64,000 bases of DNA, from NCBI GenBank assembly GCA_964549615.1, contig CAZJVP010000072.1, positions 1 to 64,000 of the forward strand, given 5' to 3'. The position numbers were made by a program, and so were the translations under genes. Shown here one piece after another: positions 39,692 to 42,860 of the stretch (positions are counted from its first letter, which is position 1; every line of letters begins with the position of its first letter). The notes beneath the pieces are model-generated. The model made no database searches. It was not told the DNA's origin and saw only the letters and a list, made by a program, of their open reading frames with translations. The stretch is from an uncultured Thermococci archaeon. GTDB taxonomy: Archaea > CAYQAE01 > CAYVLA01.

Positions 39692-40804
39692 TTGGTGAAG
39701 TTGGTGGATTTGGGGCTAGCGTGGGCGAGGTATCTTAGGCCAACCAAAGTATTCCTGACGGCGGTGGTGCTGGGAGTTGCGCTCGGGCTCGCGCTCTCGA
39801 TCCTTGCCCCGCCGATTCTGACCGCGCTCGAGCACGCCCTTTATTTCAGGATCACGAAGCCCCTTGAGATCATACAGAAGCCCCTGTCAGGGATAGTTGG
39901 AACTGAGGAAGTAACGGCCCTCTACCTGCTTGGGAACAATCTGATCGTGTCGTTCATCGCGGCCTTCGGCGGGGCCATCTTGATCCGATACACGGTGAAG
40001 CCGGGCCAGGAAACCTACACAAGGGAGGGGCGCATCACCAACCTCCTCTGGAGGCTGATAGGGGAGGGGGATGAGAAGTACAAGGAGCCAGCGGTGCTGG
40101 CATTCCTCCTTCCCTTGGCCGTCGTCTTCGTCAACGGTGGCGTCTTCGGGCTCTTCTCGGTGAGCAATGGGCTGTCGTGGAAGGAACTCTACGTGTACTT
40201 GGCCTACGTGCTTCCACACGGTTCGGTTGAGTTGCCGGCCGTGATCCTCGCCGCAACCATTGGCTACGCCACCGCAGTGAAGCTGGACTCCTTTCTTAGG
40301 AAGGGCGACCTCGAAGCCTTCCTCACATACGCAGGCAGGAGCTTGAAATCCAGAAGGTCTTGGGGCCTTTTCTCCCTCGTCTGCGTCATGCTAGTCTTCG
40401 CGGCGGCCATCGAAGCTTACCTTACCCCCGCCATCGGAAGGACGGCTCTGCAGAACTCATACTTTGATCTTCGCGTGCTAAACGAGTCGGTCAGACAGGG
40501 AGAGCCAGCCTTCTTGGTCGTCCTGGCGTCGTTCGGCGCGACCGTGACCTTTCACAACGGCTCGCTCTCAGGGCCCCCTCTTGAGGTCGAGCTTTTCGGC
40601 AGCAAGCAATATCCCTTTGAGGTCGACGGGCGCAGGATTCAGGCATCGGAGGTCGTCAGCGGCCATCAGCTCCGCATCCCCCCTGACGTCGGTGCCCTCC
40701 TCCTCAAGTTCCGTGTCAGCAACTTGACGCGCACCACCGTGGTGCACATCCTGGCATCCTGTAAGAAGCTGACCCGCGAGTCCAGACTTGAGGTGCTCGC
40801 CTAG
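39692..40804 (+). CDS. SpoIIM-family (DUF95) membrane protein with a C-terminal beta-rich domain
   Basis: NNLIV, VNGGVFG, LPHGSVELPAVILA..IG and AAAIEAYLTP motifs. Confidence 0.85.
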   Translation: MVKLVDLGLAWARYLRPTKVFLTAVVLGVALGLALSILAPPILTALEHALYFRITKPLEIIQKPLSGIVGTEEVTALYLLGNNLIVSFIAAFGGAILIRYTVKPGQETYTREGRITNLLWRLIGEGDEKYKEPAVLAFLLPLAVVFVNGGVFGLFSVSNGLSWKELYVYLAYVLPHGSVELPAVILAATIGYATAVKLDSFLRKGDLEAFLTYAGRSLKSRRSWGLFSLVCVMLVFAAAIEAYLTPAIGRTALQNSYFDLRVLNESVRQGEPAFLVVLASFGATVTFHNGSLSGPPLEVELFGSKQYPFEVDGRRIQASEVVSGHQLRIPPDVGALLLKFRVSNLTRTTVVHILASCKKLTRESRLEVLA

Positions 40805-40830
40805 CCGGCTCGACGGCAACGCCCAGCGCG

Positions 40831-40848
40831 CAAGTAAGACTTAATAGC
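40831..40848 (+). promoter_or_regulatory. TATA box for the SRP RNA/leuA-ilvB-ilvH transcript
   Basis: AAGAC-TTAATA at 40836-40846, the only TATA-like box seen ahead of the SRP RNA and leuA/cimA. Confidence 0.6.
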
Positions 40849-40914
40849 TTGCACCCAGAGCAAGGCTTCTCGGCCAAGGCCTGTTCAGCAGGATCCGTGG
40901 CCGATGCACAGGAA

Positions 40915-41261
40915 GGCAGCTTGCGGCCAACCCGGCGGACTAGGCGGGAGGCTAGGCGTCTCCTGTCACCCGAAATCGTCTATACGCGGGGCTGAATGCC
41001 GCGGGGCGGTTCGGCCGCGGGACGTTGGGCCCGGGTCCCGAACGTTGACTCTCCGTCCCTCAGGGTCGGTGGATGTGGGGCCCCCTTCGGAGGAAGGCGG
41101 CAACCACATTTGCTTTCCGAACCCCACCAGGCCGGGAACGGAGCAGTGGTAGGAAAGACATGCGGCGCTTGAGGGGCAACGGGGACGAGGTAAGGCTCGA
41201 CAAGCCCACGTCCCGCGACGGGCCCACCCGCGGATGTTCGGCGGGGTCGAAGCAGGCTGCC
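40915..41261 (+). other. Bulge-helix-bulge processing motif closing the SRP RNA
   Basis: Outer helix 40915-40924/41252-41261 (10 bp), bulge GAA 41249-41251, central helix GGCC/GGTC (40925-40928/41245-41248), bulge AAC 40929-40931, inner helix 40932-40940/41236-41244. Confidence 0.85.
40931..41250 (+). ncRNA. ffs: Archaeal signal recognition particle (7S) RNA
   Basis: Alu domain with TGTCA (UGUNR) and loop-loop complement TAGGCG/CGTCTA. Helix 6 CCTTC-GGAG-GAAGG (41084-41097). Helix 8 CAGGCCG-GGAA-CGGAGCAG (41128-41146). Termini pair. About 320 nt. Confidence 0.95.
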
Positions 41262-41281
41262 CGATGGACGGACGGATGGAC

Positions 41282-42860
41282 ATGGGAAGGGACGGAGTTC
41301 TACGTCTCTGACTACAACGACATCGCCCTCGAAAGGGCAAGGCTGCCCGAGCGAGTAGCGATTTTTGACACGACGCTCAGGGACGGCGAGCAGACGCCGG
41401 GCGTCTCCCTGACCGTTGACGAGAAGATACGGATCGCTTGCGCGTTAAATGAACTGGGCGTGGACACCATAGAGGCCGGATTCCCAGCAACATCGGAGGG
41501 AGAACTGAAAGCCATATCCGAAATAGCCGGCCTTGGGCTGAAGAGCGAGATCTGCGCCCTGGCACGGTCCAACCAGAAGGACATCGACCTAGCGTTGAGC
41601 TCCGGGGTCAGCTGCATCCACACGTTCATCGCGACCTCGGACATACACCTGAAACACAAGTTGAAGATGACGAGGGATGAAGCCCTGCAGAAGGCTGTCG
41701 AGACCATAACATACGCCAAGGAACACGGGGTCGTCGTTGAGTTCTCTGCCGAGGATGCGACGAGGACCGAGCTTGGGTACCTGCTCAGGGTCTACTCAGC
41801 TGCCCAGGACGCAGGCGCTGACAGGATAAACGTCCCGGACACGGTGGGCGCCATGATACCGAGGGCTATGGGGTATCTGGTTGGCAGGGTATGCGAGGCC
41901 GTGAAAGTTCCCGTCTCTGTGCACTGCCACAATGATTTCGGGATGGCCGAGGCGAACTCGCTGGCATCCGTGGAGAACGGCGCGACACAGGTTCACGTCA
42001 CCGTCAACGGTCTGGGGGAGAGGGCGGGAAACGCCTCCCTGGAGGAGGTGGTGATGTCCCTGCACTCCTTCTATGGCATCAAGACCAGCATCGTGACCCA
42101 GAAGATCTGTCCGACGTCCCAGCTCGTCTCGCGCCTGACGGGCATTCCCGTGCAGCCCAACAAGGCAATCGTGGGCGAGAATGCCTTCGCGCACGAGTCC
42201 GGCATACACGTCCACGGGGTGCTCGAGTCCGCAGCGACCTATGAGCCGCTGATGCCCGAGATGGTCGGGAGCACCCGGCGGATCGTCCTAGGCAAACACA
42301 CGGGAGCGCATGCCATATCGGCCAAGCTCGGCGAGATGGGCATCAAGGCCACGGAGGCGCAGGTATCCGAGATCGCCCAGCGGGTCAAGAAGATAGGCGA
42401 CATGGGCAAGGGGATCACCGACGCCGACCTCATGGCCATAGCGGAGGCCGTCATAGGCAAAGTCCCAGAGGGCAAGCGAACGCTGGAGCTGGTGAACCTG
42501 ACGGTGGTAACCGGCGACAGGACCATACCTACTGCATCACTGGCGCTCATCGTGGACGGCAAGCGAGTTGAAGGTGCCAGCATAGGGGACGGCCCTGTGG
42601 ACGCTGCGATAAAGACGATAAAAGATGTCATCAGGGATTTTGGCAAGGTCGAATTGAAAGAGTACCGGCTCGAAGCCATCACCGGAGGTAGCGATGCGGT
42701 TGCGGAGGTCACAGTCAAGGTGATTGACGATCTGGGCAACCTTGCGACGGCCCGGGGCGTTAGCACCGACATAGTCATGGCGAGCGTTGAGGCCATGATT
42801 GAAGCGGTCAATAGGCTGTTCGCCAAGAGAGGGAAGGAAGGAGGAAAGCCAAGTGGCTGA
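41282..42860 (+). CDS. 2-isopropylmalate/(R)-citramalate synthase (LeuA/CimA family); 5' end anomalous
   Basis: FDTTLRDGEQ, HCHNDFG, NGLGERAGN, HESGIH and a C-terminal regulatory domain (GDGPVDA). No in-frame ATG/GTG/TTG between the SRP RNA and the conserved core (see findings). Confidence 0.92.

Follow-up and report, generated by a model that had tools for sequence, protein, structure and literature searches.

In archaea, bulge-helix-bulge (BHB) motifs are cut by the endonuclease EndA and the products are joined into circles by RtcB, according to the available text of PMC4731332. So far, this cutting and joining has been known for the precursors of rRNA, for introns in tRNAs, for two mRNAs and for the SRP RNA of Thermoproteus, whose gene is rearranged and for which circularisation looks like the repair of a broken gene. 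In Thermoproteus tenax and T. uzoniensis, a permuted SRP RNA precursor is cut at a BHB and its ends are joined to form a circle, and an ancestor with simple BHB introns has been proposed for the gene (PMC4731332, in the part of that article open to us). The first-pass annotation of the DNA studied here had cited BHB-dependent circularisation of the permuted Thermoproteus SRP RNA and of pre-rRNAs as established, which matches the available portions of PMC4731332 and PMC7758197.

Several other RNAs provide points of comparison. BHB introns occur in the 5′ UTR of Haloferax volcanii HVO_1309 and in the cbf5 mRNA of Crenarchaeota (PMC7714728, available text), and a C/D box sRNA lies within the tRNA-Trp intron of Haloferax, Halobacterium and Pyrococcus, as far as the accessible text of PMC12558985 goes. 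Circular forms or segments of SRP RNA have been reported, in sources available in part, from Sulfolobus, Halobacterium, Haloferax and Thermococcus. In the open literature searched, with supplements and subscription journals outside its scope, we found no description of a BHB around a colinear SRP RNA gene. Here we analyse such a gene in a 64,000-nt stretch of DNA from an uncultured Thermococci archaeon (GCA_964549615.1, contig CAZJVP010000072.1), hereafter called the window.

Geometry of the BHB around the SRP RNA gene

A covariance-model search with Rfam identified the SRP (7S) RNA gene at 40933-41243 on the + strand (Archaea_SRP, RF01857; 186.1 bits compared with a gathering score of 96.5; E = 5e-44). 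The match spans model positions 1-317 and is not truncated, and the Alu domain, helix 5/6 and helix 8 follow one another in the normal order, which places the RNA in the class of archaeal SRP RNAs. Because the model aligned end to end, the gene is colinear; the permutation that defines the Thermoproteus-type class, with termini inside helix 8, is absent. The gene is single copy in the 3.2-Mb assembly and is likewise single copy in each of genomes G000-G003.

Both reading of the sequence and a motif scan place a BHB around this gene, spanning 40915-41261. In the first register, the outer helix pairs 40915-40924 with 41252-41261 (10 bp including one G.U), the central helix pairs 40925-40928 (GGCC) with 41245-41248 (GGUC), the bulges are 40929-40931 (AAC) and 41249-41251 (GAA), and the inner helix starts at C40932-G41244 and continues into the terminal helix of the SRP RNA. 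Both bulges are on the 3′ side of the central-helix strand to which they belong. The first-pass annotation had claimed a canonical BHB with 3-nt bulges, a 4-bp helix and a 10-bp outer helix around a non-permuted SRP gene, and had suggested an Infernal search with the archaeal SRP model; reading and scan confirm the geometry, and the full-length, colinear match to RF01857 described above (186.1 bits, complete) confirms the gene order.

The motif scan also revealed a second register, shifted by 1 bp and absent from the first-pass annotation, with an outer helix of 9 bp (40915-40923 with 41253-41261), a central helix of 40924-40927 with 41246-41249, bulges at 40928-40930 and 41250-41252, and an inner helix starting at C40931-G41245. 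Taken over both registers, the 5′ strand of the central helix and the 5′ bulge occupy 40924-40931 (+), and the 3′ strand and the 3′ bulge occupy 41245-41252 (+). Either register has the hBHBh′ form, with two 3-nt bulges on opposite strands exactly 4 bp apart and with flanking helices (outer 10 or 9 bp, inner 3 or 4 bp) that reach the required length of at least 2 bp on each side. The inner helix of 3 or 4 bp is followed by one mismatch and then by 5 more pairs; in the window the mismatch is a G.G at 40935:41241, and the same position is a G.U in L031 and L032 through a G-to-T change. Constrained folds gave -192.2 kcal/mol for the first register and -191.2 kcal/mol for the shifted one, compared with -194.1 kcal/mol for the free MFE structure, which retains the outer helix and only part of the 4-bp central helix. 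By these folding models, the two registers are of nearly equal energy, 1 kcal/mol apart.

The positions of the cuts were predicted by a rule, cleavage after the second bulge base, that was calibrated on the genome's own tRNA introns as called by aragorn. The rule reproduces the aragorn intron ends exactly in tRNA-Thr(cgt) on contig C1 and tRNA-Gly(tcc) on contig C61. Eight short-intron tRNAs were tried in all; in the remaining six, which are non-canonical or doubtful intron calls, there was no top-ranked agreement. For the SRP locus, the rule predicts cuts after A40930 and A41250 in the first register, yielding a circle of 320 nt (C40931...A41250), and cuts after A40929 and A41251 in the shifted register, yielding a circle of 322 nt (A40930...A41251). 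As a side observation, aragorn detected only 25 tRNAs in the whole genome and assigned introns to 16 of these, including several implausible ones (250-2600 nt); the lineage seems to be rich in tRNA introns, and many of its tRNAs may be missed by standard finders.

To put the motif in a genomic context, BHBs with an outer helix of at least 9 bp, a central helix of 4 bp and an inner helix of at least 3 bp were counted on both strands of the whole genome at an arm distance of 300-345. They occur at 27 of 95,031,540 position pairs, a rate that gives a chance expectation of 7e-4 BHBs in the 49x49 box around the SRP RNA ends, and the observed score was reached in none of 200 shuffles of the flanks. 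A BHB with the geometry seen at the SRP locus, and with outer, central and inner helices of 12, 4 and 11 bp, also encloses the 23S rRNA of this genome (C46:983-4014), and the scan listed no BHB at the ends of this genome's RNase P RNA. We also observed that the 23S rRNA BHB (C46:950-4050, L147) has a register alternative shifted by 1 bp; pre-23S RNA might yield two circle sizes too.

The genome encodes two members of the EndA family (PF01974/PF02778), one at C88:58736-59533 (393 aa, with two catalytic-domain repeats) and one at C90:41769-42002 (403 aa, with a long N-terminal region ahead of the N and C domains), and an RtcB on contig C30 (PF01139, 607 bits). A search for an Rnl3-type ligase with PF09414 gave one 30.4-bit match in a 591-aa frame; the control gives matches in bacteria too, which makes this result uninformative. 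We infer that EndA and RtcB are the enzymes acting at the SRP locus.

Conservation of the motif in the family and at other archaeal SRP loci

The phylum was sampled through five species, and a scan of metagenome contigs with an 18-nt pattern added two loci, which share 92-93% identity with the window across the SRP gene and 60 nt on either side; the same pattern in genome contigs recovered 3 known relatives and 3 chance bacterial matches. A strict BHB with an unchanged offset occurs in five of the six family sequences. In the remaining one (L013, from genome G002) the BHB is degenerate: the helices are kept, but the outer helix contains an A.G mismatch and the 5′ bulge comprises 4 bases, and the relaxed-scan score of 9 lies inside the shuffle range. 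In the second family of the phylum (G004/L023), a BHB was not found; no more than a 3′-side bulge of 3 bases was present.

In an alignment of the family sequences (A1), the region upstream of the outer helix is little conserved, and conservation sets in at that helix. When the 23 pairs of the BHB are followed through the 6 sequences, 95.7% of the cells are paired, and pairing falls to 24-48% if the partner is slid by 1-3 columns. Both sides have changed in 4 pairs, compared with 1.2 in shuffles (4 was reached by 3 of 500 shuffles), a covariation signal that, coming from six related sequences, is supportive and not decisive. Of the 10 pairs of the outer helix, whose 5′ strand lies at 40915-40924 (+) and whose 3′ strand at 41252-41261 (+) is defined by motif scan and pairing conservation, 2 are compensatory, 4 have changed on one side only and 3 are invariant, with 93.3% of cells paired over the 6 sequences. 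Positions 40924-40931 are invariant in all six sequences save for one inserted base in L013. The window, L031 and L032 carry at position 41249 the G that makes the shifted register possible, and L015, L011 and L013 carry an A there.

The comparison set outside the family consisted of 126 SRP loci; it is skewed to small genomes and holds only colinear genes found by Rfam. BHBs at these 126 loci are not enriched over shuffled flanks: the strict scan returned 2 AT-rich matches with a score of 12 (L053 and L077), and the relaxed scan reached a maximum of 11 in 1 of 126 loci compared with 3 of 630 shuffles. The idea that BHB-flanked SRP genes are a general archaeal habit was therefore rejected, scores at the 126 loci being like those of shuffled flanks. 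On the basis of sequence, the BHB-framed SRP gene is confined to this family among the loci searched.

Three further patterns were noted among these loci. The BHB-like flanks of L077 (G046) and L053 (G071) have outer helices of 8-9 bp and shuffle fractions of 0.005 and 0/200, respectively, and the predicted cuts fall 20 nt outside the SRP RNA in L077 and inside the RNA, truncating it, in L053; both may represent chance among 126 loci. Recurrent (+4,-4) matches in L008, L024, L028 and L006 were discarded as 3-nt slips of a GC-repeat terminal helix. Lastly, a tRNA gene lies 0-50 nt downstream on the same strand at 5 of 20 Rfam-scanned SRP loci (L002, L012, L022, L004 and L024), directly adjoining the SRP RNA in L012 and L022, which suggests tRNA-punctuated 3′-end formation in these lineages, unlike the BHB route proposed here.

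Transcription of the SRP RNA and the leuA leader

Upstream of the SRP RNA gene lies a promoter-like block (40832-40848, +), made up of a purine-rich BRE-like stretch and a TATA-like hexamer at 40841-40846. The same 17-nt block, with 0-3 changes, is found 82-92 nt upstream of the SRP 5′ end in all six family sequences, and the spacer around it differs between them. From the known BRE/TATA architecture, we take this block to be an archaeal promoter, which would place the transcription start near 40870. The first-pass annotation had proposed that circularisation serves to excise the RNA from a polycistronic transcript and to stabilise it. With a promoter-like box directly upstream, the SRP RNA need not be carved from the transcript of an upstream gene, and any co-transcription would be with leuA, the gene downstream.

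Downstream, leuA begins 20 nt after the outer helix. Neither this spacer nor the SRP gene's GC-rich 3′ end showed a promoter-like element, and no run of four Ts occurs within 60 nt downstream in any of the six family sequences; the missing T run is weak evidence, because a run of five Ts within 60 nt is rare at other SRP loci as well (only 39 of 126). A conserved ATG is present 35-39 nt after the SRP 3′ end in all six sequences. Given that neither a terminator-like T run nor a promoter-like element precedes leuA, the SRP RNA is probably removed as an intron of the leuA leader, and so would behave as a BHB intron there, a reading that presupposes co-transcription with the downstream leuA and ligation of the exons.

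The leuA gene itself has an unusual start. It was identified as 2-isopropylmalate synthase by NF002085 (717.6 bits) and the Pfam domains HMGL-like, HCS_D2 and LeuA_dimer, and we delimit it provisionally as 41292-42860 (+), counting from the ACG that stands opposite the ATG start of orthologues in a codon alignment. Between the SRP 3′ end and the catalytic motif of leuA, no in-frame ATG, GTG or TTG is present in five of the six family sequences. The conserved ATG instead opens a short frame at 41282-41311 (+), one base out of the leuA frame, which runs for 9 codons and then meets a TGA; in all six sequences it is preceded by a Shine-Dalgarno-like stretch and encodes M-x-R-D-G-V-L-R-L. In the leuA start comparison (window 41262-41360, L150, L164, L166, L176 and L179), 3 of the 30 bases of this frame are variable compared with 40 of the 69 bases next downstream, in which 22 of 23 leuA wobble positions vary.

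In orthologues from other families, an out-of-frame ATG likewise stands upstream, 7-11 nt ahead of the aligned start in the main frame. The codon at that aligned start is ATG in G034 and G011, ATT in G072 and G005 and ACG in the window's family. A GTG stands one codon before the aligned start in G004, and the orthologues in G021, G107 and several other genomes start normally. Because the SRP gene lies on another contig in G004, G011 and G034, the start anomaly is independent of the BHB. Candidate explanations that fit these alignments are near-cognate initiation under an overlapping upstream frame and an early +1 frameshift.

Circular SRP RNA contigs and comparison with known BHB substrates

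An index search found part of the window in 23 RNA runs from 14 studies, and the best 10 of these 23 runs are microbial-mat metatranscriptomes that contain 0.50-0.66 of the sampled words. Four of the best 10 (X1-X4), which may belong to one sampling campaign, were examined as Logan contigs. All of the RNA evidence consists of assembled contigs and not raw reads, and so reports presence, not the ratio of circular to linear molecules, with rare variants dropped. Each of the four runs holds one contig, 95-99% identical to the window and without loose ends, which covers only about 40929/30-41250 and closes on itself at the bulges. Depth of contigs over the flanks is zero on 40800-40925 and 41262-41400 in all four runs, and the precursor and the spliced leuA leader are unseen.

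The lengths of these contigs distinguish two forms. In X1, X3 and X4 the contig is 352 nt long and contains a joint 41250->40929, going back 322 with one ambiguous base, whose shorter side measures 150, 31 and 82 letters, respectively; since 352 nt equals 322 nt plus an overlap of 30 letters, these runs contain a 322-nt circle. The one-base ambiguity makes this joint equally A41251-A40930, the canonical product of the shifted register. In X2 the contig is 350 nt long, with record positions 3-29 on 41223-41249 and positions 30-350 on 40930-41250, which we interpret as a 320-nt circle joined A41250-C40931 (350 = 320 + 30; the short side has fewer than 31 letters and no joint is listed). The metatranscriptome strain differs from the window at 3-4 bases, including C41205T and G41210A; one or two of the differences lie near the 3′ cut with their letters not displayed, and the junction is read at contig level. 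At that level, the product ends fall between the second and third bulge bases on both strands, and the sizes of 322 and 320 nt equal those of the two registers. The contig ends and joints lie at 40929/40930, and in none of the four runs are there contig ends or branches inside the SRP RNA.

The first-pass annotation had predicted a circular 7S RNA from the BHB alone, with A41250-C40931 as its junction, and had counted non-conserved flanking helices as evidence against it. The self-closing contigs in all four runs agree with the circle, and the strict motif in five of six family sequences, together with the compensatory changes, agrees with the helices. The exact junction held, by our interpretation, in X2 only; in the other three runs the joint is 1 nt further out on each side. 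The earlier prediction is thus supported by RNA-derived data, with a refinement of the register by 1 bp.

We propose, at a probability of roughly 0.78, that cutting and joining at the BHB gives a circular SRP RNA (322 and 320 nt) that is probably excised as an intron of the leuA leader. The SRP RNA would be transcribed with a leader of ~60 nt plus a trailer, and leader and trailer would pair into a helix-bulge-helix-bulge-helix just outside the SRP terminal helix. EndA, the tRNA-splicing endonuclease, would then cut each bulge after its second base, and RtcB would join the 5′-OH and the 2′,3′-cyclic phosphate into a covalently closed SRP RNA within 40930-41251 (+), in which the junction would form a 7-nt loop capping the terminal helix. 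The existence of two registers 1 bp apart would lead to the two circles, 322 nt from the shifted register and 320 nt from the first. The same cuts would remove the SRP RNA from the leuA leader, which after splicing would contain a hairpin of 9 bp closed by a 7-nt loop. The circle is presumably the working form of the SRP RNA.

One alternative accepts the cutting and joining and regards the circle as a short-lived intermediate or by-product, the working SRP RNA being linear after reopening or trimming. Such a fate would resemble that of circular pre-16S and pre-23S RNAs, which form at BHBs and are later opened (bioRxiv 10.64898/2026.03.23.713588 and PMC7758197, in their available parts), and only circular segments of 7S RNA, of unknown function, are described for Sulfolobus and Halobacterium in the accessible text of PMC3326292; moreover, the contigs do not give the proportion of circular molecules. 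However, the circle extends beyond the Rfam model by only 3 and 8 nt in the 322-nt form or 2 and 7 nt in the 320-nt form, and because the join merely caps the terminal helix with a 7-nt loop, no trimming is needed. The absence of internal contig ends and branches in all four runs also argues against reopening, and the Thermoproteus circle is the form that binds SRP protein (PMC4731332, available text). We therefore consider a linear working RNA rather improbable, although it is the rival that we take most seriously. The junction contigs might instead be library artefacts of template switching or intramolecular ligation, with the flanking helix serving as a processing or transcript-end stem. 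The 5′ and 3′ ends of the SRP RNA are base-paired neighbours and a good substrate for artefactual joining, and the library protocol is stated only as 'RNA-Seq other', with contigs as the only material. Against this, on either side the joints coincide with the canonical cleavage site (second|third bulge base), the two forms equal the two registers, the contigs are closed with no loose ends in all four runs, and the exact 3-4-3 spacing is kept in five of six sequences. An artefact would pick those positions only if the RNA had already been cut there, and we judge this explanation very unlikely.

The leuA anomaly raises the further idea that the SRP RNA interrupts the leuA coding sequence as an intron, so that splicing would bring a start codon from upstream into frame. 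Downstream of the SRP gene, leuA lacks a canonical in-frame start, and the window alone would accommodate such a frame: minus 322 nt, ATG 40904 falls in the leuA frame, and minus 320 nt, GTG 40897 or TTG 40921 does. In relatives the frame fails, since a stop lies between the 3′ cut and the conserved N-terminus in four of the six family sequences (L031, L032, L015 and L011), and in L013 the spliced frame is open but lacks a start codon. In addition, the same leuA anomaly occurs in other families that have the SRP gene on another contig. Exon joining as the source of the leuA start was rejected on account of these stops, and a coding intron is scarcely credible.

If the circular SRP RNA proposed above is the product, the RNA of a normal SRP gene is closed into a circle in the same way as that of the rearranged Thermoproteus gene, which implies that circularity is selected for itself or for 3′-end formation and not as a rescue. 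It would be a plausible pre-adaptation for gene permutation, as the position of the gene ends is irrelevant in a circular product. An essential RNA of ~320 nt would be added to the natural cargo of archaeal BHB introns and, if co-transcription is true, an mRNA leader intron would carry it. The two registers, seen as two circle sizes, amount to a natural experiment on how EndA measures its substrate. A more far-reaching version, which we offer tentatively and think doubtful, is that the SRP RNA has no source other than the leuA mRNA, of which it would be a BHB intron; splicing would give both a permanent, working circle and a translatable leuA leader, and the colinear but circular state would be a stepping stone to the Thermoproteus permutation. 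If so, one promoter would drive both the SRP RNA and leuA, and SRP biogenesis and leucine biosynthesis would share one processing event.

Each of the known systems shares part of this arrangement. Like the circular pre-16S and pre-23S RNAs, the SRP precursor has long flanking helices and a 3-4-3 BHB that enclose a large structured RNA, and a circle is formed; the rRNA circles are reopened intermediates according to the available text of those sources, whereas the SRP circle here gives no sign of reopening. With Sulfolobus, Halobacterium, Haloferax and Thermococcus it shares the existence of circular forms of a non-permuted SRP RNA, but those are segments or low-abundance forms for which the accessible parts of the reports name no BHB and, for some, discuss BHB-independent ligases (Rnl3 family). 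Like the HVO_1309 and cbf5 introns, the BHB segment would lie between the transcription start and the coding frame and be excised as a circle; the HVO_1309 intron is 46 nt long with no known function, as its source describes it in the available part, whereas the segment here is an essential RNA of 320/322 nt that would be co-transcribed with leuA. As in the tRNA-Trp intron, a functional non-coding RNA would be released as a BHB intron from a host transcript, with the difference that in the available description a tRNA carries a small guide RNA, and in the present case an mRNA leader would carry the SRP RNA.

The likeness to the Thermoproteus SRP RNA is that leader and trailer form a BHB and the product is circular. 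In Thermoproteus, as the accessible text of PMC4731332 describes it, the gene is rearranged, the junction falls in helix 8b and circularisation restores the RNA. In contrast, the gene described here is colinear, the junction caps the terminal helix and the linear product would already be complete. Because a permutation of the gene is tolerated when the product is a circle, the colinear but circularised state is another possible precursor of the permuted gene.
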